A stretch of 47,733 nt of DNA, from contig CAKUMP010000001.1 in the NCBI GenBank assembly GCA_934667795.1, positions 1-47,733 on the forward strand, given 5' to 3'. Below the pieces are notes generated by a model, which made no database searches, was not told the DNA's origin, and saw only the letters and a program-made list of their open reading frames with translations. Source of the stretch: an uncultured Chthoniobacterales bacterium. Lineage in GTDB: Bacteria > Verrucomicrobiota > Verrucomicrobiia > Chthoniobacterales > CAKUMP01. Positions within the stretch are counted from its first letter, which is position 1. Each line of letters opens with the position of its first letter. This document shows, piece after piece, positions 2,051 to 33,267 of this stretch. A program made the position numbers and the translations under genes.

Positions 2051-5000
2051 ATGAAAATATTGAAGTTACGCTTTAAAAACCTCAATTCTCTTGCAGGAGA
2101 ATGGGAAGTTGATTTTCAATCGTCTGAATATACGGATCAGGGGATTTTTGTCATTACCGGACCCACTGGCGCTGGCAAAAGCACCTTATTGGACGCAATT
2201 TGTCTGGCACTTTACGGACGTACCCCGCGTTTGGATAAAATTAGCAAACAGGAAAACGAAGTGATGTCACGTCGGACCGGTGAATGCCTGGCAGAAGTGA
2301 CATTTTCCTGTCGTGACGGACGTTATCGCAGTTGCTGGAGCCAGCGGCGCGCGCATACAAAACCGGATGGTGAATTACAATCTGCAAAGCATGAACTGAT
2401 AAATGACGAAACCGGCGAGATCCTGGAAAATTCTCTGCGAGGCGTGATGGCAAAACTCCCGGAGCTGACAGGATTAGAGTACACGCAGTTTACCCGTTCG
2501 ATCCTTCTGGCACAGGGAAGCTTTGCGGCATTCCTGCAAGCGTCCACCAGCGAACGCGCTCCCATTCTGGAACAAATCACCGGTACCGAAATTTATAGCG
2601 AGATTTCTACAGAAGTTCATAAACGACAAGCCGAGGAACAGACAAAATTAGTCCAACTGGAACAGGAAATGGCTGGTATTCCGGTTCTGACACCAGATGA
2701 AGAAAGCCAGATACTGGAAGATCTCGCAGCAAAAGAAAAAGAAGAAGCAGAAGCCACTACTCATAGGAATAAAATCCATACTGCCATTACCTGGAAAAAA
2801 GGAATCAACGAGCTGACACAAGAAATTCAAAGCTTGTCTGAAGAACACACCCGGCTGGATCTAACTCTTCAAAACTTCCAGGATGATCGCAACAGGCTTG
2901 CTTTGGCCAACAAAGCACTTCCTCTAGAGTCGGCTTACGAGACATTGCTGATGTCAAAAAACGGACAAAAAGCCGACCAGACACGGCTGGAAGAGATACA
3001 GGAAGCATTGCCGCGATTACAAGCAGCATTGACGACACAACAGCAGAATTTAAAATTTGCGGAGGAGCAAGTTCAGGTTGCGAAAAAGGAGTTGGATAAA
3101 GCAATACCCTTGATTAAACAGGTACGCGCACTCGATTTGCAACTGGAGGAAAGACAAAAAGGAATCACGCAGGCTAAGACAGATTTTGAGGAAAATGTCA
3201 AGAAAATTGCGACTAGCAAAAAACGGCGTGAAGAGGCAGAAGTAGGGTGTCGCCAGCAGATGGTTCTGCAAGAACAGGTGAGAAAATATCTGGCAGAGAA
3301 CGAGAGCGACGCCTGGCTGGTAGCTGGTCTGGCAGGAATCCGTCAGCAGGGGGAACGGTTGGAAGATAAACAAAAAGACATCAAATCCAGACGACAGGAA
3401 TGCACGAAGGAAGAAAAAGAAATTGCGGAAATTGAGAAACGACTGACAACAATCCAGGCGCAGCATCAAACACATGAACAGCACTGTAAGGAGCAGGCGC
3501 ATACGCTTCAGGAAAAAGAAAAAGCGAATGCAGGAATGCTGGCAGGGCGTTTGTTGTCAGAATACCGCAGAGAAAAGGATGGCTTGCTGCGTGAACATGC
3601 ATTGCTCATGAGGGTTGCAGAGCTGGAGGCGCATCGCACCAAACTGGAAGATGGAAAAGAATGTCCGCTTTGCGGATCCCTGGAACATCCATACGCAAAA
3701 GGAAATCTCCCGGTGCCAGATGAGACAGAAAAAGAAATCGAACGTCTGACCCGCTTTATTGCAACTCTGGAAAATCAGGAAACACAAATTCAGAAAGAAA
3801 AAGAAAGTCAGAGTAAATTTCAGGAAAAATTATTGGATCTGCGCCACCAGAAAGAACGTATGGAGGTAGAGAAAAACGAGAAGGACAAAAAGTGTATTCG
3901 CTTCCGACAGGAGATTCAAAAACTGGAAGAAGAATTTGGCGCTTTAAAACAAAATATTCTGATTCAACTTCAACCATTAGGCATTCAGGAAGTTTCTGAT
4001 GAGAAAATTCCCGAATTGCTGAATTCTCTGGAGAAACGTCATGCTGCCTGGGTGGAGTACCAGCGTAAACAATCTGATTTTGAAAAACAGATATCCTTAT
4101 GCCGCGCACACGTTCAGAAGCAAACGGCGGTGGTGGATACGCTCACCCAGGAACTGGAAGATAAACAAAAACGTCTGGACGATCTGCGGGAAGAATTTTC
4201 TAAAGGACAGAAAAACCGTGAGGAAATATACGGCGGAAAAAATCCGGATGAGGAAGAGCGCCAGTTAACGAACGGGATTGTTCGGGCCGAAAAAAAGGTG
4301 AACGACTCGAGAGAAGCTTTGCAGGAGGTGATACAAAAATGGACCAAGGCGGAGTCGGAGATACAAACATTAGAAAAACGGATTGAAGAAAAAGTAGAAG
4401 AGATTATCCGTCGGACATCCACTTTTTCAACATCGCTCACAACTGCCGGCTTCAAGGATGAAGAACAATTTCTCCAGGCACGTTTGTCGATACAGGAACG
4501 CGAAACCCTGGATGCCAGGGCGAAGGAGTTAGATGCACAAAAATTGCAGATCGAAACCCGATTGAAGGACCGTCGAGAACAGTTGGAAAAGGAACAGAAA
4601 AAAGAAGTTTCGGATCAACCCTTGGAAAGTCTGGAATCACAGTTGCAGCAACAGGAAGAATTGTTGAAGCAATGCCGGGAGATGATTGCGAACTTTAAAC
4701 ACCGGCTGACAGAAAATAAAAAAGCACAAGAACGCGCACAAGGAAAACAGGCATTGATTGACGCACAAAAACGGGAATGTTCGCGCTGGGATAAATTGCA
4801 TCGTTTGATTGGATCTGCTGACGGGAAAAAGTTCCGGAATTTTGCCCAGGGGCTGACATTTGAAATTATGATCGGACATGCCAATCAGCAGTTACAAAAA
4901 ATGACCGATCGTTATTTGTTGATCCGGAATTCGGAAGAACCTCTGGAATTAAATGTATTGGATCAATATCAGGCGGGAGAAAAACGATCGACGAAAAACC

Positions 5001-5332
5001 TTTCCGGAGGAGAAAGTTTCATTGTGAGTCTGGCATTGGCTCTTGGGTTATCACAAATGGCCGGGCATAAGATTCAAATGGATTCCCTGTTCCTGGATGA
5101 AGGCTTCGGGACATTGGATGAAGAAGCACTGGAGGTGGCGTTGAATATGCTCTCAAGCCTCCATCAGGAAGACAAAATGATCGGTGTGATTTCTCACGTG
5201 GGTTCGCTGAAAGAAAGAATCCCAACGCAGATTCGTGTGATTCCAGGCACTGGAGGGCGCAGCGAGATTAAAGGTCCGGGGGTAAAGAGGTTGAATGGGG
5301 GGGAAGCGTTAGGATTCAGGATGGTTGAATGA
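2051..5332 (+). CDS. sbcC: Exonuclease SbcCD, ATPase subunit SbcC (SMC/Rad50-like)
   Basis: Has an N-terminal Walker A (GPTGAGKST), a very long coiled coil with a zinc hook (CPLCG), and a C-terminal signature LSGGE plus Walker B (LFLDEGFGTLD). Confidence 0.92.
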   Translation: MKILKLRFKNLNSLAGEWEVDFQSSEYTDQGIFVITGPTGAGKSTLLDAICLALYGRTPRLDKISKQENEVMSRRTGECLAEVTFSCRDGRYRSCWSQRRAHTKPDGELQSAKHELINDETGEILENSLRGVMAKLPELTGLEYTQFTRSILLAQGSFAAFLQASTSERAPILEQITGTEIYSEISTEVHKRQAEEQTKLVQLEQEMAGIPVLTPDEESQILEDLAAKEKEEAEATTHRNKIHTAITWKKGINELTQEIQSLSEEHTRLDLTLQNFQDDRNRLALANKALPLESAYETLLMSKNGQKADQTRLEEIQEALPRLQAALTTQQQNLKFAEEQVQVAKKELDKAIPLIKQVRALDLQLEERQKGITQAKTDFEENVKKIATSKKRREEAEVGCRQQMVLQEQVRKYLAENESDAWLVAGLAGIRQQGERLEDKQKDIKSRRQECTKEEKEIAEIEKRLTTIQAQHQTHEQHCKEQAHTLQEKEKANAGMLAGRLLSEYRREKDGLLREHALLMRVAELEAHRTKLEDGKECPLCGSLEHPYAKGNLPVPDETEKEIERLTRFIATLENQETQIQKEKESQSKFQEKLLDLRHQKERMEVEKNEKDKKCIRFRQEIQKLEEEFGALKQNILIQLQPLGIQEVSDEKIPELLNSLEKRHAAWVEYQRKQSDFEKQISLCRAHVQKQTAVVDTLTQELEDKQKRLDDLREEFSKGQKNREEIYGGKNPDEEERQLTNGIVRAEKKVNDSREALQEVIQKWTKAESEIQTLEKRIEEKVEEIIRRTSTFSTSLTTAGFKDEEQFLQARLSIQERETLDARAKELDAQKLQIETRLKDRREQLEKEQKKEVSDQPLESLESQLQQQEELLKQCREMIANFKHRLTENKKAQERAQGKQALIDAQKRECSRWDKLHRLIGSADGKKFRNFAQGLTFEIMIGHANQQLQKMTDRYLLIRNSEEPLELNVLDQYQAGEKRSTKNLSGGESFIVSLALALGLSQMAGHKIQMDSLFLDEGFGTLDEEALEVALNMLSSLHQEDKMIGVISHVGSLKERIPTQIRVIPGTGGRSEIKGPGVKRLNGGEALGFRMVE

Positions 5333-5334
5333 AT

Positions 5335-5362
5335 ACGGACGGAGTGGACGGAATGGACAGAG
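5335..5362. repeat. Left inverted array of a 9-mer repeat flanking four-helix-bundle cassette 1
   Basis: The sequence is acggacggagtggacggaatggacagag. Its reverse complement contains cgtccactccgtcc, identical to part of the right array at 5974-6018. Confidence 0.8.
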
Positions 5363-5364
5363 TT

Positions 5365-5952
5365 TTATGAGGAGCGTTTTCGTCTGGTGTTGCGGATATT
5401 GTACAGGCGTTCGGTAAAACCGCCTTTTTGTTCGAAATCCCGGGCCAATCGCTCAACCTGACGGTCGAGAAGGGAGCAGGCGACTGCCAGGAGTACCAGC
5501 GTGGCATTGGCGGAAAACTCAGGGTAGGTTCTTGTGGGAAGGGTGTGTTCCGGGTGGAGCTTTTTGACGGTTTCGATGATCCACGCAGCGACTTCATTGG
5601 CAGTTTGGCAGCGACGCTTGATGAGTTGCCGGCGGAGCGGGTTTGTATATTCCCATTGTGGGAGTTTCCGTTGTCGTAGAAAATCTTCGTAATCCAATTT
5701 GAGCTCTTCCAGGCTGGCGCGTGCCACCTGGGTGAGCTTGAGCTCGGTCTTTTTTGAGGTTGCAGACGCCTGTGAGCCTTCGGCGATATTTTGCACGCCG
5801 GATCTCGCAGCCTGGATCATCTGGTCGCGGGTACGACTGCGAGGGTGGATATATTTGTCGCAAAACCGAACCGTGATATCATACACCAACTGAGCTATCT
5901 GAAAACTTTTCAACCTGCGATAGCCACCATGTTTGGAAATCAAATCAGACAT
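5365..5952 (-). CDS. Four helix bundle protein (23S rRNA intervening-sequence protein family) with a C-terminal suffix domain
   Basis: Motifs seen: YRRLKSFQIAQLVYDITVRFCDKY...QMIQAARSGVQNIAEG...ASLEELKLDYEDFL. These are typical of the TIGR02436-type family. Confidence 0.8.
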   Translation of the reverse strand: MSDLISKHGGYRRLKSFQIAQLVYDITVRFCDKYIHPRSRTRDQMIQAARSGVQNIAEGSQASATSKKTELKLTQVARASLEELKLDYEDFLRQRKLPQWEYTNPLRRQLIKRRCQTANEVAAWIIETVKKLHPEHTLPTRTYPEFSANATLVLLAVACSLLDRQVERLARDFEQKGGFTERLYNIRNTRRKRSS

Positions 5953-5973
5953 GCCACCTCCTTTGAAGTTGCA

Positions 5974-6018
5974 CGTCCACTCCGTCCACTCCGTCCACTC
6001 TGTCCACTCTGTCCACTG
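5974..6018. repeat. Right inverted array, 5 copies of the 9-mer YGTCCACTS
   Basis: The copies are cgtccactc x3, tgtccactc and tgtccactg. The array is inverted relative to 5335-5362. Confidence 0.85.
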
Positions 6019-14916: not shown

Positions 14917-17063
14917 TATTCATCGAGCAACGGACCGATCTCGGTATCAATCACCTGACGGAACCATTCCCGAGCATCACTGATGGGAATACCGAACGGC
15001 GGTGTGACATAGCTGTGCCCCACTCGGAACTGAGGCCCGAGACCGGTGTCGGCTGAAATCTCGCTGTTCAGGGCAATGAGACGCTTCTCAATTTCGACAA
15101 GGATTTCTGAATCAATACCGCACTGGGATTGAACCCAATCATGCCAAGGTTTGCCGAGCGTGGGTTCCAGATCGATGAAGGCAAAACGGCGACGCAACGC
15201 CAGATCTACCAAGGCGAGGGAGCGGTCTGCAATATTCATCGTACCGATGACATAGAGATTGTCCGGGATGAATACACGCTCGCCATCTGACCGTTTATAG
15301 GAAAGCTCCAGGGCCTCATTCGGCGTTCTCTTGTCGACCTCGAGGAGCGTTAGCATCTCGCCGAAAATCTGTGCGGGATTCCCGCGATTGATCTCTTCAA
15401 TGACGACGACATGTCTTGCCGTTGGATCTTTTGCGGCGGCCTTCATCATCTCCACAAAAGGCCCATCCACCAGCGTGAGCTTTCCGTCTCCCACCGGCCG
15501 CCATCCACGAATGAAATCCTCGTAGGAAAGGTTCGGATGAAACTGCACCGCTCGGACTTTACTGTCGTCGCGTTGCCCCATCAAAGCGAAAGCCAATCGC
15601 TTGGCCAGCCAGGTCTTTCCTGTGCCCGGCGGCCCCTGGAGGATCAGGTTTTTCTTGGTCCGAAGGCGCTCGAGAATCTTTTCGAGTTTTTCACGGGCGA
15701 TAAAACATCCATCCGTCAGAATGTCATCGACGGAGTACGGTTCGATGGGTGCAGCCGTGACCTCTGCCTCGGATGTGGCATCCGCTTCGTCATCCTGTGC
15801 ATCAGGATCTGTGGCATTCGGGTAGGGGGATGTCCCACTATCCTTGAAAAGCCAGGCGGCAAGTGACAGCTCCGGAAATGAGTGGACGGGATACGCATCC
15901 TCCTGGAAACGAGCCTCAAGGGTGTCCAGCACCGTCAGATAATCAGTGGCGTTGCAGCGGTCTTTGGGGCTGTTCATGCCAATCTGAATGTTGAGCTTCT
16001 TGCTGATGTAACGCTGGGACTGACCATCAAGGGTCGGGAAATTCCAGGGACGAATCCAGTACAGCCCCATGGTAAGGTTCCACCCCACATTATAGCGCTG
16101 CGTCGCGTTGTCGTAGGCTGAGACAAATGCCGACCGTGCCTCCGCGTCATCCGATTCCGCAAAAGCAATCGCCTGGACGAAAACTTCCCAGAGGGTTTCG
16201 ATGTCATCTGGTTGGCGTTTGTTGTCGAACCCGAAAAACCATGACTTCTGATTGTTGAGAATGGGAATTCCTTCAAACGAGTCTGGAACAGGCTCGGACA
16301 CTCCAAGCAGATTGGCAAGTTCGCTCGCAATAGCTTTGCGATTTGCATCGGTAATCCTCCGGTTGAATATGCCCATAGCCGTAAATGGGCAGATGTCCTT
16401 CAGGGGGCCAGAGGTACCATCCGCGAATTGATCCTGCAGGTTGGAGAGGCCATCCACCTTCGAGGCAATAACGTGGATTCCGGCAATCAGCTCATCTCGC
16501 CGATTCCGAAAGGTAAGGAGTTTCTCTGCTACAGCCTCGTAAAAGCGGGTCCAGTTGAAACGGCGCTTGTCGATAGCGCTATCACCGAAGCGTTCACGCC
16601 AGTAAGGGGCATTGCGGAATCGGTTAATGTCTTGCGCCTTTTCCTCGAAAGTGAAGCCGATCAAAGCATCTGTGGTCCAGTCGCCAGGCAAGACCCGCCA
16701 GACCGTGCTTCGATTGGTGTAGAAGTACCACTCACGCGGAGGATCGAAAGGTTTCCAGTCAACCTTCAAGGTGCGGCCGTCGCCGAGATTCTCTTTTACC
16801 GTGCCAATGGCTTTGATCGCCATGACGGAAACGGTTTGGCCTCGGTTATCAAATGGGAGATCGTGCTTCCGCGTATAGGACGACTTGATCGCAATGCGGT
16901 CACCCACCTGGATGGACTTCACTGCGTCGAGATATTTGTCCTGATACCCATTTTCCCAAATGCCTTCCTGCAGAAAGCGGGGGGTCTGATCGTCTGTTCC
17001 GCCGTATGTGGCTCCGACAAACCAACAGGCTCGGGCTCCGGCCCCTTCAGGTTTTGAATTCAT
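14856..17063 (-). CDS. mcrB: McrB-like AAA+ GTPase with a long (~470 aa) non-canonical N-terminal region
   Basis: Motifs seen: LILQGPPGTGKTW, VQFHPNLSYEDFIRGWRP, VVVIEEINRGNPAQIFGEMLTLLE, GTMNIADRSLALVDLALRRRFAF. Confidence 0.85.
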   Translation of the reverse strand: MNSKPEGAGARACWFVGATYGGTDDQTPRFLQEGIWENGYQDKYLDAVKSIQVGDRIAIKSSYTRKHDLPFDNRGQTVSVMAIKAIGTVKENLGDGRTLKVDWKPFDPPREWYFYTNRSTVWRVLPGDWTTDALIGFTFEEKAQDINRFRNAPYWRERFGDSAIDKRRFNWTRFYEAVAEKLLTFRNRRDELIAGIHVIASKVDGLSNLQDQFADGTSGPLKDICPFTAMGIFNRRITDANRKAIASELANLLGVSEPVPDSFEGIPILNNQKSWFFGFDNKRQPDDIETLWEVFVQAIAFAESDDAEARSAFVSAYDNATQRYNVGWNLTMGLYWIRPWNFPTLDGQSQRYISKKLNIQIGMNSPKDRCNATDYLTVLDTLEARFQEDAYPVHSFPELSLAAWLFKDSGTSPYPNATDPDAQDDEADATSEAEVTAAPIEPYSVDDILTDGCFIAREKLEKILERLRTKKNLILQGPPGTGKTWLAKRLAFALMGQRDDSKVRAVQFHPNLSYEDFIRGWRPVGDGKLTLVDGPFVEMMKAAAKDPTARHVVVIEEINRGNPAQIFGEMLTLLEVDKRTPNEALELSYKRSDGERVFIPDNLYVIGTMNIADRSLALVDLALRRRFAFIDLEPTLGKPWHDWVQSQCGIDSEILVEIEKRLIALNSEISADTGLGPQFRVGHSYVTPPFGIPISDAREWFRQVIDTEIGPLLDEYWFDALEKSQKVRERLLEGF

Positions 17064-17079
17064 ATCCAGGTTTCCATTA

Positions 17080-17550
17080 TTATTTTCCTTCCCCGGTTAA
17101 CAGAGCGTCCTCATCAATCTCGAACAAATCCGGTGTGGAGCGGTGGACGCCGATGCCGTGTTCCATCAACAGCATCACGAGTTGTTCACCGTTCATAAGG
17201 GCGATGGGAGTCTTGTCGAGATCTTTTGCGGCTTGCTCAAAATCACGGATGCGAGCGGCATTCTTGCCGACATTCGGTTCCTGGCGGCAAAGCACGGCGC
17301 GGCCAAGATTTTCAATGGTGTGTTCCTTGCCATGATGGAAGATGGCAACATCCACTTTTTTGCGCCCACCGATGGAGAAATCCGGCTCCATGTCCTCTGG
17401 CGAGAATCCGTATTCATGGATCAGGGCGCGAACAATCCTCTGGCGCACCAGCTCTTTCTTCGTTTCCTTGACCTGTTTGCCGGAAACGTAGTCGAGCGTA
17501 TATCCCGCCGGGATGGTGTTCTCGGCCTGCTTATTCTTCTTTTTGCTCAT
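17080..17550 (-). CDS. Small restriction-endonuclease-like protein: HsdR_N-like N-terminus plus a Mrr-like C-terminal tail, catalytic motif apparently degenerate
   Basis: The N-terminal part (LVRQRIVRALIHEYGFSPEDM...KKVDVAIF) resembles the type I HsdR N-terminal domain. The expected ExK position reads LCRQ. The C-terminus (IALMNGEQLVMLLMEHGIGV) resembles the end of Mrr proteins. It ends 16 nt upstream of the mcrB start. Confidence 0.5.
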   Translation of the reverse strand: MSKKKNKQAENTIPAGYTLDYVSGKQVKETKKELVRQRIVRALIHEYGFSPEDMEPDFSIGGRKKVDVAIFHHGKEHTIENLGRAVLCRQEPNVGKNAARIRDFEQAAKDLDKTPIALMNGEQLVMLLMEHGIGVHRSTPDLFEIDEDALLTGEGK

Positions 17551-17578
17551 ATAAAAACTCCGTTCACCGAGGCTGAGG

Positions 17579-17784
17579 TCATTTCTGGTCGCCCTCGCCG
17601 AAATCTTGGGTTGTGTGTTTCTGTTGCTCTATCCATGCGTCGATGTCTTTTCGGGAAAATCGCCACTGGCCTCGGACCTTGAAAGCAGGTAGTTCCCCGG
17701 CCTGGGCCATGGAGTAGACCGTCTTTTCGCCGACCTTAAGTAAGGCGCGACGTCTTTTAATTTCAGAACCTCTTCATTGCTCAT
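17579..17784 (-). pseudogene. Excisionase/MerR-type HTH (HTH_17-like) gene with a 1-nt frameshift
   Basis: The minus strand reads ATG..MSNEEVLKLKDVAPYL in one frame. It continues as LKVGEKTVYSMAQAGELPAFKVRGQWRFSRKDIDAWIEQQK..* in another. The shift is at CCTTACTTAAGGTC, around 17735-17745. Confidence 0.6.
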
Positions 17785-17948
17785 GTCGCCTCTCCTGCAG
17801 GGCTGTTGGCCGTCAGGGCACAGTGCCAGAACAGGGGTAAGTTACCTGCCTCTGAGTAAAAATCAACCAGAATATACCAAATTACGCCAAAGAATGCCAG
17901 AAGAATTTTGTGTTGCAAAACACTAAACAGCGAGGTATATTAGACGCT

Positions 17949-18299
17949 ATGAAAAACTTTGGTGAAACACTCCGCGACCTTCGGGTTGCTCAAGACCTCG
18001 GCCTGCGCGAGACGGCGACCAAGGTAGGCATTTCCCCTGCCTATCTGAGCCGCATCGAACGTGGCAAGGAGCGTCCGCCAAGGCCAGAGGTGATAAAGGA
18101 ACTGGCCAAGGTACTGGCGGCCGATCCCGACGTACTGTTCCGTTTGTCCTCGTCCACGGACCCGGAAGTCGTCGACTACCTTCATGACCAACCCGAGGTC
18201 ATGAATTTGCTCCGCTACATAAAGGAAGCCAACTTTACCGAGGATGAGATCAAGAGCCTCATCCAGGCAGCCGAAAGCATCAAGGCCAACACTCATTAG
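17949..18299 (+). CDS. XRE-family helix-turn-helix transcriptional regulator
   Basis: Motif seen: LRDLRVAQDLGLRETATKVGISPAYLSRIERGKERP. It is divergent from the mcr operon. The ATG at 17949 is preferred over the GTG at 17910. Confidence 0.8.
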   Translation: MKNFGETLRDLRVAQDLGLRETATKVGISPAYLSRIERGKERPPRPEVIKELAKVLAADPDVLFRLSSSTDPEVVDYLHDQPEVMNLLRYIKEANFTEDEIKSLIQAAESIKANTH

Positions 18300-18518
18300 C
18301 CCCGCCACTCCCGGTCAATTCGTTCCCCATTTGTAACCCGAGCCATTCTGTAAATCCACACTGCAATTGAAGCGTTCCGGCATCCAGCGGCCACCATCAC
18401 CCGCTGGTACATGCTGTGCCCGCCGGGCCGAAAGCCTTCCAGCCGGTCGATGGGCGGTAGATCGCGCTGAGGATCGGTGAAGGTCACCAGTTCCCCATGG
18501 ATCAGATCCCAGTCGCTC
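18296..18518 (-). pseudogene. C-terminal remnant of a gamma-glutamylcyclotransferase (GGCT/AIG2-like) gene
   Basis: The segment IHGELVTF...LPPIDRLEGF...YQRVMV...AVWIYRM matches the C-terminal half of the AIG2/GGCT fold. The N-terminal 68 codons of the annotated ORF are only a translation of the heptad repeat array. Confidence 0.55.
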
Positions 18519-18714
18519 GATTGTTGATTGTTGATTGCGGAATGCGGATTGTTGATTGGGGATTGCTGATTGGGGATTGCTGATTGGGGATTGCTGATTG
18601 GGGATTGTTGATTGGGGATTGCTGATTGGGGATTGCTGATTGGGGATTGCTGATTGAGGATTGTTGATTGGGGATTGCTGATTGGGGATTGTGGGATTGT
18701 GGGATTGTGGGATT
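18519..18714. repeat. About 28 tandem heptads (GATTGNN; 14-mer GATTGGGGATTGCT), left flank of four-helix-bundle cassette 2
   Basis: Read directly. The segment 18533-18550 (GATTGCGGAATGCGGATT) is the inverted partner (17/18) of 19147-19164. Confidence 0.9.
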
Positions 18715-18794
18715 CAGGCATTTTTCACTCCTATTTTGGTGGTTTCTTTAAATCCGAAGTCGTAAATCCGACCTCCGCAATCTATTTTGCCTCC

Positions 18795-19148
18795 ATGAAT
18801 ACTGAAGATTTCAAAAACAGAACAAAGGCTTTTGCCTTGAGGGTTGTTCGACTGACGGAAGCTTTGCCGAAGAATCAGACGGCAAATGTGATTGGAAAGC
18901 AGCTGCTCAGATGCGGAACGTCTGTTGGTGCCAACTACCGCGCTGCCTGCCGCGCTCGCTCCAATCCCGAATTTATTGCCAAAATGGGCATTGTTGAGGA
19001 GGAGTGCGCCGAAAGTATGTACTGGATGGAACTCATTGTTGAAGCCGGGCTGATGGAAGAGAAATTGATTATCGATTTGAAAAAAGAAGCAAACGAGATC
19101 CTCTCCATGGTCGTGGCTTCCATCAAGACGGCGCGTTCTCGCAAATAA
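18795..19148 (+). CDS. Four helix bundle protein (23S rRNA intervening-sequence protein family)
   Basis: Motifs seen: FKNRTKAFALRVVRLTEALPKNQTANVIGKQLLRCGTSVGANYRAACRARSNPEFIAKMGIVEEECAESMYWMELI. The ATG at 18795 is preferred. The upstream extension is repeat-derived. Confidence 0.85.
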   Translation: MNTEDFKNRTKAFALRVVRLTEALPKNQTANVIGKQLLRCGTSVGANYRAACRARSNPEFIAKMGIVEEECAESMYWMELIVEAGLMEEKLIIDLKKEANEILSMVVASIKTARSRK

Positions 19149-19175
19149 TCCGAATTCCGCAATCATAAATCCGCC
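19147..19175. repeat. Right inverted repeat of four-helix-bundle cassette 2
   Basis: The sequence is AATCCGAATTCCGCAATCATAAATCCGCC. It overlaps the four-helix-bundle stop codon and the last codons of the amidotransferase fragment. Confidence 0.8.
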
Positions 19176-19702
19176 TTCCGTCGTTCCTGACAGACAAATT
19201 TGAAGGGATGGCTCTGCCACTCCTTGAGGTTTTCATGGCGGATGGTCAGCATGGTCATGGGCGGCACCTCCAGCTCGCGCCAGCCCTTCTCGTTGTCCAC
19301 GGCAAAGTCAATAAAGGCGTCGTCCGAGGCGTAGAGCACCACCCGGTGCTGGCGGTGGATGCGCAGGCAGAGCGGCTTGTTGCCCTTGAGCACGGTGATG
19401 GTGCCGGGGTCGAGCCGTGAGGCCAGCACGGCGCTCATCTGACCGCGACAGAGGGCAAGCGCCTTCTTCAGGCCCTCCTGGTCGATGGGGGCTTCGGGCG
19501 CGAAGCGGTCGGCCAGACGGAAGATCCGCTCGCTGTCCACCTCGGCGTAGCGCGGCAGCCTGAGACGGCGGAACAGATAATCGGCGTTGTAGATGGTGCC
19601 GTTGTGGGTGCCGATGACGATCCTGGGCCGGATGGGAGGGTGGTTGCGGTTGTTGAACTCGTCACCCCGGAGAATGACCCCGGAGAGACGGGTTGTCTTT
19701 TT
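19163..19702 (-). pseudogene. N-terminally truncated class II (Ntn-type, YafJ-like) glutamine amidotransferase
   Basis: The frame is open only from the TGA at 19703-19705, 2 nt from the tmRNA CCA end. It reads ...LRGDEFNNRNHPPIRPRIVIGTHNGTIYNADYLFRRL...AEVDSERIF. The N-terminal nucleophile region is absent. Confidence 0.6.
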
Positions 19703-19707
19703 TCAAT

Positions 19708-20063
19708 TGGTGGAGGCGAGGGGAGTTGAACCCCTGTCCTTGAAATCATCCCTCAGAACTTCTACATGTTTATTCGATTTTTTAATTTAGGAGAGCCAGC
19801 CTGAATCGACACAGTTTGGAACTCCGAGCATCCACGTAATATCTCGTTACCCCACGCGGTTGCACCGAGGATAACCAGCCTGCTGCTTGCACCCGGACGC
19901 GTAGCAGGCGTTCGCGAACGGATGTCACAGTCAATTAAGCTGCGAGTGCGAGATCTTGTGTATCTGCATTTAGTTTGTTTGATCCGATTATTAACGAGGC
20001 CAACGAATCATCCTCGACATGCGGCCCTGACTTCAAACTTCCAGTCGAAACCAGTACGCCCCC
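19708..20063 (-). ncRNA. ssrA: tmRNA (ssrA), 356 nt
   Basis: The 5' end is GGGGGCGUACUGGUUUCGAC. The 3' end is GGGGUUCAACUCCCCUCGCCUCCACCA, which pairs with the 5' end as a tRNA-Ala-like acceptor. It contains a GUUGGCCUCGU pseudoknot region like E. coli ssrA. The tag ORF is GCA GAU ACA CAA GAU CUC GCA CUC GCA GCU UAA (ADTQDLALAA*, 19967-19925). Confidence 0.9.
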
Positions 20064-20098
20064 TTATTTTTTCAATATGCAACAGAAACGGGGAGATG

Positions 20099-23008
20099 TC
20101 AAGTGGGAGTGACGGGTGGGTTGGGGGAATGGAGGATATTGTAGAGGATATGAGCGAGCTCTTTCCATTCGATGGGTTTGAGGAGGAGTTCGCGGACACC
20201 GGCAAGGCGGATTTCTTCGGAGGATTGGGTGTCGGTATAACCGGTGAGCATGATAATCGGGAGGTCGGGGCGGATGGCGAGCAGTTTGCGGGCGAGATCG
20301 ATCCCGGAGAGGTTGGGCATCATGCGATCAGTCACGACGGCGTCGAAGCGGTGAGGGTTCTGCATAAAGTCGCGAAGGGCTTCGGTGCTGTCGGTATGGC
20401 AAACAGAATGATAGCCGAGACGCTCGAGGCTTTTTTGTCCGAGTGTTACCAGAATCGATTCATCATCCACGAAGAGGATGCGTTCGCCATTTCCTGTGGG
20501 GAGGGTTGTGGGGGTGAAAGGGGGTGGGAGAGAAACTTCTGACTGCGCGATGGGGAGGAGCACAGAGAAAGTGGAACCTTTCTGGAGTTCGGATTCCACG
20601 AGGACCGTGCCGTGGTGTTCGCGGATAATCCCGAGCACCACCGAGAGGCCGAGTCCGGTCCCTTTTCCTTGAGGTTTTGTCGTGAAAAATGGATCGAAAA
20701 TGCGATCGAGATTTTCGGTAGGGATTCCGTCGCCGGTGTCCTGGATATCGACGCGGAGGTAAGTTCCGGGGATCAGATTATGGAGTTGCTGGATGGGGGA
20801 GTGCGGTTCAATGATCTCCTGCGAGAGAGAAATCGTGAGCGTGCCGCCATTGTCCTGCATCGCCTGGCATGCGTTGGTTGCGAGGTTCATCAACACCTGG
20901 TGGATCTGGCTGGGGTCTGCCATGATCGGCGGGATTTTTGGGACGATTTTTTCCACCAGCAGGATATTTGCCGGGACCGTTGCCTGGAGGAGTTTGATCA
21001 TTTCGCCCACGAGACTATCGAGATGGACCGCGGAGCGGATGGAATCATTGCGACGGCTAAACGTCAGGATCTGGTGGACCAGATCTTTCGCGCGATTGGA
21101 AGCGCTGAGGATGTGATCGAGATCGGAATCGGTACAGGGGCTGCGTTTTGGGTTGTCGCGTGCGAGAGAAGCGAAGCCGATAATCGCGGTCAGGATATTA
21201 TTGAAATCGTGTGCGATCCCGCCGGCGAGCGTCCCGATGGCTTCCATTTTTTGTGCCTGACGAAGCTGGCGTTCGAGAGACAATTTTTCCTCTTCCGCAT
21301 TTTTTTGATCAGTAATGTCCTGGATCAAGCCAAGCGCGCGATGGGGGGAGTCCGGATTCACGCGAAGCTGGGCGTGGATCCAGCGGATATCGCCATTTGG
21401 GTGTACCAGGCGATGACTGACATCCAGCGGTGCTGATTTTTCGATCGTTTTGCTGATCGCATTGATAATGCGTGGGCGATCGACCGGGTGGACGAGTTGG
21501 TAAAACTGGTCGAGATTGCCACGGAACTCATGGGGTGGAATCCCGAAAATATGATAGGTTTCGCGCGAGCAATGGATGCGTGGAACGGGTTCATCGAGGT
21601 CAATCGTCCAGCTTCCGACATGCCCGACTGCCTGGGATTCTTCGAGAAACTTCTGACTCTCCCGGAGGGCAGCCTGCGCTTCCCGGAGTTGGGACGTTTC
21701 TACTTCGAGAGAAATCATGGATGCCATCATTGCGGCAAAATTGATTTCTTCCGGCGTCCAGACGCGTGCGGTGTGGGATTCGTGAGAAACCACGCCGATC
21801 CATTTCCCATTCAAGCGGATGGCAACATCCAGCAAAGAGAGTGTTGGTTTATCGGCAAAATGGGTCAGCGCAAAATCGCGAGTTCGGATATCCTGAAAGG
21901 CATCGGTTACATCGATAATTTTATTTTCGCGAAGTGCGCGAGAATAAGCGGGGAAATTATGGAGCGAGAGCATTTCTGCCGAACTGTGTGTACGGGTCGT
22001 ACGATTAAAACGGTCCACCAGAAGCATTTCGCCCGTTCCCTCCATCAGGCGGTAAATCGAAACCGTATCGACATCGAGAGAATCCAGATCGGTTTCGGTG
22101 ATATGATGGAGAGCGGCTTCGAAAGTCGTTGCCGGGTTTTGGGCGAGGCTCAGGAGTGCGCGTTGATGGACCTGGGAACGGTTCAGGCGAGAGCGGTGTT
22201 TTTCTTCTGCCAGCGTGCGGTCGGTGATATCGCGCAGCACCAGCGTGAAGAGGGCAGCTTCATCTGCCTCGCTGTAGGCCAGGGACGCTTCCACCGGGAA
22301 TTCCATCTGGTTTTTTCGGAGTCCACGGAGGGGGACATGAAAACGTTTGTGACGGATTCCGCTTCGGTCAGGGGCAGAAAGCTGGCAAATGGTCAAAAAG
22401 GAACGGAGCTGGTCATGCCACGCTGCAGGAAAGAGCTGAGTCAACGATTGTCCGATCATTTCTTTACTGGGAAACTGAAACATCTCTTCTGCCGCTTCAT
22501 TAAACAGAATCACATTCAGGTTTTGATCGGCCGTGATAATCGCATCCATCGCGGAGGCAATAATTGTGGAGAGGCGTTTTTCGCTGGTTGCGAGTGCATT
22601 ACGGGCATGGCGGCGTTCCTGACGCGAGCGGGCATCGCGGAGTTCGCGTTCGATCACCGAAGGGAGCACCGTGAGGTGCTGTTTCAGAATATAATCGTGT
22701 GCGCCCAGACGGATGGTTTCCAGTGGTTCCTCGGGGGAGGCCGGGTGAGAAATGACCACAAACGGGAGGTCAGGAAAATGTTTCAGTGCATACGAAAGAA
22801 TATGCTGATACGCCGGGTTTTCAGGATGCCAGTCTGAAAGGATCAGTGTAGATTGTTGGGAATCAAGAGCTTCCTGTAGCGCTTCCGGTGTTGCTACGTG
22901 CGAAATCGTGCATGGGATATCAGAAGATGCGAGCAAATGCGCAACCGTCTCGTGATCCTGGGTATTGGATTCAAGATGGAGGATAGTAACGGTATCTGAT
23001 ATGCTCAT
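20099..23008 (-). CDS. Hybrid sensor histidine kinase/response regulator (REC-PAS-GAF-PAS-HisKA-HATPase-REC)
   Basis: Has an H-box (IAHDFNNILTAIIG), N and G boxes (LMNLATNACQAM, DTGDGI, GTGLGLS), and N- and C-terminal receiver domains (LILSDWH; ILFVDDE...VVTDRMMP). Confidence 0.88.
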   Translation of the reverse strand: MSISDTVTILHLESNTQDHETVAHLLASSDIPCTISHVATPEALQEALDSQQSTLILSDWHPENPAYQHILSYALKHFPDLPFVVISHPASPEEPLETIRLGAHDYILKQHLTVLPSVIERELRDARSRQERRHARNALATSEKRLSTIIASAMDAIITADQNLNVILFNEAAEEMFQFPSKEMIGQSLTQLFPAAWHDQLRSFLTICQLSAPDRSGIRHKRFHVPLRGLRKNQMEFPVEASLAYSEADEAALFTLVLRDITDRTLAEEKHRSRLNRSQVHQRALLSLAQNPATTFEAALHHITETDLDSLDVDTVSIYRLMEGTGEMLLVDRFNRTTRTHSSAEMLSLHNFPAYSRALRENKIIDVTDAFQDIRTRDFALTHFADKPTLSLLDVAIRLNGKWIGVVSHESHTARVWTPEEINFAAMMASMISLEVETSQLREAQAALRESQKFLEESQAVGHVGSWTIDLDEPVPRIHCSRETYHIFGIPPHEFRGNLDQFYQLVHPVDRPRIINAISKTIEKSAPLDVSHRLVHPNGDIRWIHAQLRVNPDSPHRALGLIQDITDQKNAEEEKLSLERQLRQAQKMEAIGTLAGGIAHDFNNILTAIIGFASLARDNPKRSPCTDSDLDHILSASNRAKDLVHQILTFSRRNDSIRSAVHLDSLVGEMIKLLQATVPANILLVEKIVPKIPPIMADPSQIHQVLMNLATNACQAMQDNGGTLTISLSQEIIEPHSPIQQLHNLIPGTYLRVDIQDTGDGIPTENLDRIFDPFFTTKPQGKGTGLGLSVVLGIIREHHGTVLVESELQKGSTFSVLLPIAQSEVSLPPPFTPTTLPTGNGERILFVDDESILVTLGQKSLERLGYHSVCHTDSTEALRDFMQNPHRFDAVVTDRMMPNLSGIDLARKLLAIRPDLPIIMLTGYTDTQSSEEIRLAGVRELLLKPIEWKELAHILYNILHSPNPPVTPT

Positions 23009-32870: not shown

Positions 32871-32904
32871 CAGTTGACAGTTGACAGTTGACAGTTGACA
32901 GTTG
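32871..32904. repeat. Heptad tandem repeat (CAGTTGA, 5 copies)
   Basis: Read directly. Inverted partners (GTCAACTGTCAACTG) lie at 33074-33088 and 33253-33267. Confidence 0.9.
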
Positions 32905-32924
32905 TGCAACTGGAAATGTTCGCT

Positions 32925-33267
32925 AAAAAAGCAGAGGTTTTGCTTTTGTGACAATGGAAGACCAGGAAGGCGTGGACCGTGTGGTTGAACGCTTTAATGG
33001 ATTTGAATTTTCAGCTCGTACTCTTGTTGTGAATATTGCGTGCGCCCTCAAAAAAAACTGTCCACTGTCCCTTGTCAACTGTCAACTGGAGATGCCGTCC
33101 GCTGAAAAAAGCAGAAGGTTTGCTTTTGTGACAATGGAAGACCAGGAAGGCGTGGACCGTATGGTTGAACGCTTTAATGGATTTGAATTTTTAGCTCGTG
33201 CTCTTGTTGTGAATATTGCGCGCGCCCTCAAAAAAACTGTCCACTGTCCCTTGTCAACTGTCAACTG
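32925..33267 (+). pseudogene. Two tandem ~180-nt units, each carrying a degenerate copy of the 3' half of the RRM domain of the upstream gene
   Basis: The segments 32925-33047 and 33105-33227 are about 90% identical by eye to 32597-32716 (FAF(I/V)TM(A/E)DQEGVDR.VERFNGFEF..R.LVVNIA). Each is followed by CTGTCCACTGTCCCTTGTCAACTGTCAACTG. Confidence 0.8.

Follow-up and report, generated by a model that had tools for sequence, protein, structure and literature searches.

The window analysed here is a 47,733-nucleotide (nt) stretch of DNA from an uncultured Chthoniobacterales bacterium, and all coordinates and strands refer to this full stretch. It carries, on the plus strand at 18795-19148, a gene for a four-helix-bundle protein of 117 aa, which is bracketed by inverted arrays of 7-base repeats (the arms) and lies between the remnants of two minus-strand genes, one encoding a class-II glutamine amidotransferase (GATase) and the other a GGCT/AIG2-like protein (GGCT). 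The region is probably a cassette resembling the intervening sequences (IVSs) of 23S rRNA but located outside rRNA, that is, a portable unit at the junction of a genomic island, of which the window copy would be a later derivative. The open reading frame (ORF) matches PF05635 (E 8e-20, 71.4 bits, Pfam cut-off 33.8) and TIGR02436 (93.7 bits, cut-off 24), and its product aligns by sequence to the solved structure PDB 2RLD over residues 6-115 (E 1.2e-17). The closest relatives of this protein, P0241 and P0242, are 96-97% identical to it, and the dN/dS of the bundle gene against its relatives is 0.04-0.14 in all informative pairs, a range that marks the protein as functional and under purifying selection. 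It is the sole ORF product of the cassette, which encodes no recombinase or transposase.

The upstream, or left, arm (18519-18714, plus strand; repeat families D1-D4) comprises about 28 GATTGNN units. Tandem Repeats Finder describes 18519-18691 as an array of period 14 (12.4 copies, 89% matches, score 276), the period-14 unit being two heptads, GATTGCT and GATTGGG, and three GGGATTGT units, which are 8-mers, prolong the array to 18714. The downstream, or right, arm (19144-19180, plus strand) holds four to five AATCCGN-type heptads and the inverted repeats I1 and I2, and is near-identical to the corresponding arm in two related loci, L211 and L226. When reverse-complemented, 19147-19164 agrees with 18533-18550 at 17 of 18 bases; a repeat search extended this match to 18526-18553 and 19144-19171 (28 nt, 86%) and returned a second extended inverted match between 18538-18571 and 19147-19180 (34 nt, 79%). 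Terminal inverted repeats of 28-34 nt and 79-86% complementarity, able to form a stem that encloses the ORF, are present at this locus. The arms obtain 15.5 when scored with a single fixed scheme, as against a mean of 8.0 and a maximum of 11.5 in 200 shuffles of both flanks; shuffling the downstream flank by itself 500 times never gave this score, nor did any of the 233 other 200-nt windows of the contig. The bracketing of the gene by inverted heptad repeats, as claimed in the original prediction from the sequence, is borne out. On the coding strand of the cassette the upstream arm is GATT-type and the downstream arm AATC-type. The upstream arm consists of tandem 7-base units in at least three copies with length variation between relatives, as is characteristic of heptameric repeats, the same arm having 5-9 units in L211, L226 and L150 vs about 28 in the window.

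A second arm, not listed in the original prediction, is present inside the unit. This internal arm (18750-18783, plus strand), made of AAATCCG-type heptads, is separated from the array by a spacer (18715-18749, plus strand) that recurs as near-identical sequence in L226 and is absent from L211. The internal arm forms the inverted repeat I3 with the array (32 nt, 72%) and the direct repeat D5 with the right arm (28 nt, 79%), is shared with L226 and matches L006 at 19 of 21 positions. The internal arm and the array can close a hairpin devoid of a gene, whereas pairing of the array with the right arm would instead enclose the gene.

Beyond the array lies the GGCT remnant (18296-18517, minus strand), which comprises the C-terminal 72-73 codons and the stop of a gene of the widespread island lineage. 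The remnant (18299-18517) is 94-100% identical to intact 172-aa PF06094 proteins, confirming that a truncated GGCT gene is present, and 17903-18514 shows 97% DNA identity to L005, a locus with an empty site. An ORF of 141 aa (18296-18721, minus strand), which matches no Pfam family, spans both the array and the GGCT remnant, in agreement with its proposed nature as a chimera of repeat translation and gene remnant; the C-rich strand of the heptads is free of stop codons in every frame, which alone keeps the ORF open, and it is not a real gene. On the opposite side, the GATase_6 fragment occupies the frame 19163-19702 on the minus strand and ends in ...QERRKADL*, its last codons and stop lying within the right arm, as had been proposed. 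Its body (19248-19702, minus strand; PF13522) belongs to the widespread lineage and has 96-97% DNA identity to L006, and its tail (19163-19247, minus strand), which ends in ...LKEWQSHPFKFVCQERRKADL* and matches L211, was imported with the cassette from a different, L211/L219-like lineage. The GATase of the window is without about 85 N-terminal codons, intact homologues having 265 aa, and 5 nt separate the opening of its frame from the 3' end of the transfer-messenger RNA (tmRNA) gene.

The junction between GATase and GGCT was surveyed in 80 named-genome loci. GGCT directly follows GATase, with no cassette, in 69 of these loci and also in L005; a bundle gene lies between the two genes in five (L140, L148-L150, and L159, which is partial), GGCT has no match in five others, four of them at a contig edge, and an insertion sequence (IS) is found at the junction in one (L178). 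Intact GATase-GGCT pairs, which the original prediction had proposed as the means of defining the insertion boundaries, are therefore available, and a base-by-base comparison of empty (L125, L137) with filled (L140, L150) sites places those boundaries. A cassette of about 450 nt, composed of arm, gene and arm, stands in place of 92 nt made up of the last 8 GATase codons and approximately the first 21 GGCT codons, the latter being poorly conserved, and no target-site duplication was found between empty and filled sites, no bases being duplicated at either joint. In the filled loci, the stop-side arm supplies a new GATase stop (…QERKGTS*) and the start-side arm, preceded on the opposite strand by GGAGG and ATG, supplies a new GGCT N-terminus (MTFSINPQSEIPNQQL-LRLFVYG…). 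Clean insertions with both neighbours intact are seen in L140, L150, L010 and L211-L225, of which L010 and L211-L225 represent two other module lineages with a more diverged GATase (about 58% protein identity to the widespread lineage for L010). An empty (L125) and a filled (L149) copy occur together in the genome of the cultured Desulfobulbus rhabdoformis DSM 8777, and the filled locus L150 belongs to another cultured carrier, Desulfosarcina alkanivorans PL12.

Derived alleles complete this series. GGCT codons 1 to about 95 are gone in L006 and L007, all of GATase and half of GGCT in L009, GATase codons 1-219 in L226, where a second gene-less heptad hairpin is found at the joint, and GGCT codons 1 to about 100 in the window; the outer edge of an arm marks the end of the deletion in all four cases (the window, L006/L007, L009 and L226). 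L226 carries the spacer, internal arm and gene of the window with a shorter upstream array, and the expansion of the upstream arm in the lineage of the window amounts to about three-fold relative to L226 (about 9 units) and up to five-fold relative to the alleles with 5-9 units. The unit is discrete, and empty, clean and derived alleles of the site exist, with one breakpoint mapped. The insertion with deletion that had been predicted needs to be split into two steps: a discrete unit did replace 92 nt, but the primary event spared both genes, and the large GGCT deletion is a feature of derived alleles.

The outward start of GGCT is visible in the window as CCTCC directly 5' of the bundle ATG (18783-18797). 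On the opposite strand this motif is a GGAGG placed 8 nt in front of the new start codon of the divergent GGCT, and the equivalent positions of L150 and L211 carry the same CCTCC/GGAGG layout. As a trait of the family, an outward ribosome site was rejected, CCTCC before the start codon being present in 1 of 58 other loci; the outward GGAGG is a local adaptation of cassettes at the GATase/GGCT junction.

The identities of the cassette and of its flanks are discordant in both directions, which shows that the cassette has a history of its own. Between the window and L006, DNA identity is 0.96-0.97 for the GATase body, 0.76 for the cassette gene and 0.94 for the GGCT C-terminal remnant. Between L006 and L010 it is 0.65 for the GATase body and 0.89 for the cassette gene, with a dS of 0.6 between the two cassette genes, and between L140 and L149 it is 0.97 for the GATase body, 0.96 for the cassette gene and 0.57 for the 5' part of GGCT. 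The genes for P0241 and P0242 sit at the same GATase/GGCT junction in a third, L211-type module lineage, whose GATase ends in …LKEWQSHPFKFVCQEQRKADL*, i.e. the odd tail of the GATase in the window. In a three-way alignment the window agrees with the L211 type as far as 19235 and, from 19243 on, with the widespread type, and a single breakpoint explains 206 of the 227 informative sites; exact-word matches from the two lineages overlap only at 19248-19255 (8 nt), and the longest word common to both lineages near the breakpoint is 11 nt. The bundle gene, right arm and GATase tail of the window thus derive from another island lineage, the breakpoint lying at 19243-19255, and the imported patch runs on past the right arm through about 80-90 nt of foreign GATase tail, or roughly 25-30 terminal codons.

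Since the array length (196 nt) and the continuity across the array depend on a metagenome assembly, it may be asked whether the array, together with the junction between the foreign cassette and the GGCT remnant, arose from repeat mis-assembly in the metagenome bin. The array exceeds the usual length of short reads, the bin consists of 378 contigs with a completeness of 65%, and other GATT arrays lie at contig ends (C91, C160), several arrays in this position probably being what breaks the assembly. Such an artefact is nevertheless improbable. The joint between array and GGCT (…CAATCGAGCGACTGGG) is unique and unlike the joint of L006, so that it must exist in the reads; the 8 nt common to both lineages at the right breakpoint are too short for a k-mer join and, with no common word above 11 nt, make a k-mer assembly chimera there unlikely; and L226 independently has the spacer, internal arm and gene with a shorter array.

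Outside the island junction, a 91% identical gene occurs at locus L227 in an unrelated chromosomal context, without GATase or GGCT, where it retains a remnant of the junction-specific outward start. At L227:1440-3480 (ENA ERZ25073285, a 2.8-Mb contig), about ten tandem copies of a unit of about 65 nt are also found, the unit consisting of the last 35 nt of the bundle ORF and the right arm, and upstream of them is a further, partial copy of the gene, which has an array of its own. In a comparison of 17 locus pairs whose genes are at least 85% identical, L227 was the one locus with a clearly unrelated context, deletions accounting for the remaining discordant flanks, and the idea of the same cassette in different contexts at scale was rejected, L227 alone qualifying. 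The original prediction suggested that such cassettes are or were mobile or recombinogenic outside rRNA: the second term is supported, in that discordant histories and a mapped breakpoint directly show a recombinogenic unit, whereas a mobility of its own is at most a possibility, a single locus placing this cassette type in an unrelated context.

The association of the gene with arms extends to the family. In a sample of 80 metagenome loci with proteins 56-80% identical, and with an arm threshold of a score of at least 13, 58 of 63 flank pairs of close relatives reach this threshold, whereas displaced pairs from these loci, taken as controls, never do (0 of 113). The arms of the close relatives are 7-periodic (GGATTNN, GGAATGC, GGAGTGC) and their orientation is constant, with GATT-type repeats upstream and AATC-type repeats downstream on the coding strand. 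The bundle family is present in 42 of 61 genomes of the host's order at 1-10 copies each; among the distant relatives in this order, 25 of 30 loci have arms, with quite different heptads, GTTGAGA, AGTTTTC and CGGAGTT among them. The assembly itself holds two family members. The second, which has a four-helix-bundle suffix domain (minus strand, unit 5337-6017, ORF 5365-5952; TIGR02436 and TIGR04258, with PF05635 at 33.1 bits slightly under the cut-off), lies between inverted 9-mer arrays at 5337-5363 and 5974-6017, whose arms are 27 nt long, 89% complementary and unrelated to those of the first. Complementary arms, variable in length, are a family-wide rule.

The converse does not hold. The assembly contains 66 period-7 arrays (CAGTTGA 25, GATT-core 17, AATTAC/GT 12, unclassified 12) and about nine inverted pairs without a gene, among them tight GATT-type hairpins on contigs 23, 81, 91 and 315; gene-less arrays outnumber gene-bearing ones, and most heptad arrays in this genome enclose no bundle gene. 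The association that the original prediction had put forward therefore stands from the side of the genes, which carry arms, and fails from the side of the arrays. The gene-less GATT-type hairpins are intergenic with unequal arms (e.g. 17 vs 7 units), at C23:4730-4906, C81:2817-2938, C315:311-432 and C91:8128-8449. Inverted CAGTTGA/AACTGTC arrays around loops of about 145-365 nt were also observed, at 32871-33267 of the window and at C11:20130-20544, C149:5646-5896 and C154:4908-5117; in the window the 3' half of an RRM-type gene is present twice as loop sequence, the two copies being 95% identical, and the loops on C11, C149 and C154 are unrelated to it and to one another.

With so many arrays, the repeats might be taken for generic microsatellites beside an ordinary cargo gene, with no cassette at all. 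The 66 period-7 arrays of three families and the gene-less inverted pairs would fit such an explanation, as would the count of a five-unit GATT pattern, for which this genome has 98 matches, the most of 61 related genomes, the next highest having 29 and a reversed-pattern control giving 3. Heptamer repeats, inverted pairs included, are moreover found in Xanthomonas and Nostoc without an attached gene (PMC4692102). Yet the same gene with the same kind of arm recurs in other hosts and metagenomes, the orientation of the arms relative to the gene is constant, and empty and filled alleles differ by exactly arm, gene and arm. The control test (58 of 63 vs none of 113) already contradicts the microsatellite explanation, which is very unlikely.

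The alleles can be ordered into a course of events. The cassette would first have replaced 92 nt at the GATase/GGCT junction and harmed neither gene, as one arm would have given GATase its stop and the other, with its outward GGAGG and ATG, would have given GGCT its start. A patch of gene, right arm and GATase tail from another island lineage would later have been joined, across 8 nt of microhomology, to the widespread lineage; a deletion reaching exactly to the outer edge of the upstream arm would have removed GGCT codons 1 to about 100, this arm would have grown to about 28 units, and the N-terminus of GATase would have been lost against the tmRNA gene. The arms may act as portable, slippage-prone homology that leads to cassette exchange, arm-adjacent deletions and array growth. 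Transcripts of either strand are predicted to form a long imperfect stem from the arms, as in the IVSs of 23S rRNA, and the bundle protein may, by analogy with Avd, bind nucleic acid, possibly its own arms.

A portable IVS-like cassette has nevertheless to be weighed against the possibility that the gene and arms are a passive passenger, spread with the island and rearranged by ordinary homologous or illegitimate recombination between island variants residing in one host, the arms serving an RNA-level purpose such as insulating or processing a transcript and having only an incidental part in the rearrangements. All the cassettes closest to that of the window sit at the same GATase/GGCT junction, the right breakpoint of the window lies outside the cassette, in GATase, there is neither a target-site duplication nor a recombinase in the cassette, and the junction tolerates an IS too. 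Four lines of evidence make a purely passive role doubtful. The GATase-side edges of the cassettes agree within about 3 nt in modules with about 65% GATase DNA identity, their genes being 89% identical with a dS of 0.6; L227 combines a 91% identical gene and outward-start remnants in an unrelated context with about ten tandem copies of the 3' end and arm; the four deletions, which are independent, stop exactly at arm edges; and the RNA-level purpose is without support from wobble bias. In this last respect, G-U-compatible types account for 100 of the 306 arm mismatches, i.e. the chance share.

Several observations weigh against the portable cassette as read here. The G-U-compatible mismatches number 51 on the coding strand vs 49 on the other strand, with no excess, and selection on RNA pairing found no support as a wobble bias of arm mismatches on either strand. 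The folding energy of the 691-nt unit is not exceptional (z = -1.35 relative to dinucleotide shuffles); repeats fold well in any order, so this test is uninformative, and arm pairing is kept in the centroid fold. No sigma-70-like promoter was found in 18200-19800, and no Shine-Dalgarno sequence was seen 5' of the bundle ORF. The gene-less GATT-type arrays and hairpins of this genome indicate that the arms do not need the gene in cis, and the array rests on the assembly as discussed above. The GATase-GGCT pair is often rearranged; fusions or truncations without an arm at the joint are found in P0001-3, P0039, P0123 and P0125, and in L178, from a Lentisphaeria metagenome-assembled genome, an ordinary IS with a 495-aa transposase lies at 3660-5640, at GATase codon 260, with GGCT intact; the GATase/GGCT junction is therefore a permissive site in general.

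The systems closest to the cassette are the IVSs of 23S rRNA, an example of which was reportedly described in Leptospira by Ralph and McClelland in 1993. Like the cassette, they hold one small PF05635/TIGR02436 ORF in the loop of a stem of terminal inverted repeats, are a few hundred nt long and horizontally acquired, and are regarded as selfish with unknown benefit. In Coxiella burnetii, the 23S rRNA IVS bears S23p and is excised by RNase III, and S23p is reported to be decaying and not synthesized in vivo (PMC4990558), in contrast to the strong purifying selection that acts on the protein in the window. The cassette further differs in lying outside rRNA, the tmRNA being the only RNA gene in 16000-22000 (Rfam), in being placed between two protein genes to which it supplies a stop and a start, and in having arms that are arrays of 5 to 28 seven-base units. 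An identity as a 23S rRNA IVS proper was rejected, the flanks being GATase and GGCT coding sequence.

The arms themselves resemble the heptameric repeats of bacteria, which include GGGAATC in Xanthomonas and GGGGA(T/C)T in Nostoc (PMC4692102) and TAACTGA in Beggiatoaceae, Cyanobacteria and Bacteroidetes (PMC4679880). In both cases the unit has 7 bases, is intergenic and differs in array length between close relatives; the Nostoc unit GGGGATT is a circular permutation of the GATTGGG of the window, and 70-75 convergent inverted heptamer pairs occur in Xanthomonas (PMC4692102). The repeats of these two reports have no associated gene, whereas arms of the type in the window bracket a conserved gene and travel with it. 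Insertion sequences and miniature inverted-repeat elements share with the cassette terminal inverted repeats, presence/absence polymorphism and deletions starting from the element end, but the cassette is without a transposase or target-site duplication, replaces 92 nt and has tandem arms instead of unique ends. A transposable element was rejected as an identity for the same lack of duplication and transposase and because no family of identical dispersed copies exists. Integron cassettes differ in their single attC, the arms of the bundle cassette being tandem heptads on both sides.

A remnant of a diversity-generating retroelement, i.e. an Avd-type protein left after loss of the reverse transcriptase, was also considered. 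Avd is likewise a member of PF05635 (PMC10053308) and has the four-helix-bundle fold that a sequence match predicts for the protein in the window. Heptad arms, however, are to our knowledge not found in such retroelements. This origin is highly improbable: no RVT_1 (PF00078) match was found in the 65% complete assembly, the whole window included, no reverse transcriptase appears in the gene tables obtained for related module loci, and no template/variable repeat pair is present in 18200-19800, where the direct repeats other than D1-D4 and the 28-nt D5 are short two-copy pairs of 12-24 nt.

The GATase and GGCT flanks are accessory, being parts of a travelling island linked to ssrA, about 100 copies of which were compared. 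The GATase-GGCT pair is 96-100% identical in protein across many phyla, carriers being found among Desulfobacterota, Zoogloea, Ectothiorhodospira, Halothiobacillus, Opitutaceae, Synergistaceae, Hydrogenedentales, Dichelobacter nodosus, Achromobacter and an actinobacterium, and no homologue of either protein was found in 40 genomes of the host's family or order, for which reason the allele comparison had to use unrelated island hosts. The island backbone has the order Amidoligase_2, a 113-aa gene, GATase, GGCT and one or two helix-turn-helix (HTH) genes, followed by variable restriction/defence cargo, and the first four of these genes were observed as a module at the ssrA-proximal end of the island in the named genomes L119-L198. 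In the window, the attachment point is the tmRNA gene ssrA (19708-20063, minus strand; ARAGORN; Rfam RF00023, 170 bits), and the conserved flank beyond GGCT is marked by an XRE-type HTH gene of the backbone (17910-18299, plus strand; HTH_31, HTH_3), the gene order being the same in L005, L006 and L008. A further backbone gene, of the excisionase-type HTH_17, is split into two overlapping frames at 17579-17784 of the window and is a single 68-aa gene in L005. In five other genomes the distance from GATase to the tmRNA gene upstream of it is 0.3-1.1 kb. Islands integrated into ssrA, such as the vrl locus of D. nodosus (PMC2593044), likewise abut the tmRNA 3' end; a D. nodosus genome carries a 97% identical GATase-GGCT pair at L146, possibly the vrl locus itself, and no integrase was identified in the window. 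PADLOC gave no match for GATase, GGCT, the amidoligase, the 113-aa protein or either bundle protein, and the module was rejected as a known defence system.

Another small insert was seen in some copies of the island. A mini-hairpin, AAATCCGC-AGGACA-GCGGATTT, equivalent to a single pair of the arm heptad, begins an in-frame insert of about 75-90 nt in the GGCT 5' region of three loci (L008:360-440, and L124 and L130:3824-3850; proteins P0013, P0016 and P0121), and a similar insert of 25-26 residues lies inside the GATase of other copies. The insert resembles a very small mobile hairpin and is without a match in the genome of the window.

No published description of bundle genes with heptad arms was found in full-text literature searches. 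The protein family of the IVS type is known; the particular value of the locus lies in the series of alleles documenting cassette exchange, polite insertion, arm-adjacent deletions and arm expansion. A large-scale CRISPR discovery survey lists, in a figure legend, a '23S rRNA IVP' family among those associated with CRISPR arrays (PMC10910872), and it may be guessed that tandem heptad arms mimicking CRISPR arrays are behind this listing.

A wider reading can be proposed, although it is speculative and rather unlikely at present, in which bundle proteins and heptad arrays together make up one self-propagating system: the bundle protein recognises its own heptad array, as a single strand or hairpin, and promotes its copying, expansion or recombination, so that cassettes would seed gene-less arrays. 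Hints in this direction are that the genome with the longest arm has the most GATT arrays, and that the gene 3' end and arm are amplified in tandem in L227. GATT arrays occur in 19 of 60 relatives, 18 of which have a family member vs 23 of the 41 relatives without arrays, a co-occurrence that is a hint only, related genomes not being independent. A dependence of GATT arrays on a close homologue of the protein in the window was rejected, as the genomes with the two closest homologues among the relatives (G047, G055) have no array of five GATT units, and G020 and G022 have arrays with the family member absent or only weak; the correlation exists only at the level of the whole family.

The locus represents a rare natural allele series at one site, with empty, clean, deletion, mosaic and expanded-arm alleles, in which gene and arms behave as a unit with its own history. 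This unit reshapes its neighbours, either politely, by donating a stop and a start, or destructively, through arm-adjacent deletions. For genome annotation, repeat-translated chimeric ORFs such as that of 141 aa are artefacts, and tandem arms may produce false CRISPR-array calls. The bundle protein family has remained an orphan since its discovery in rRNA intervening sequences about 30 years ago, and the excess of 7-base repeats in bacterial genomes is unexplained; if the wider reading were true, this excess would be the footprint of the bundle gene family.

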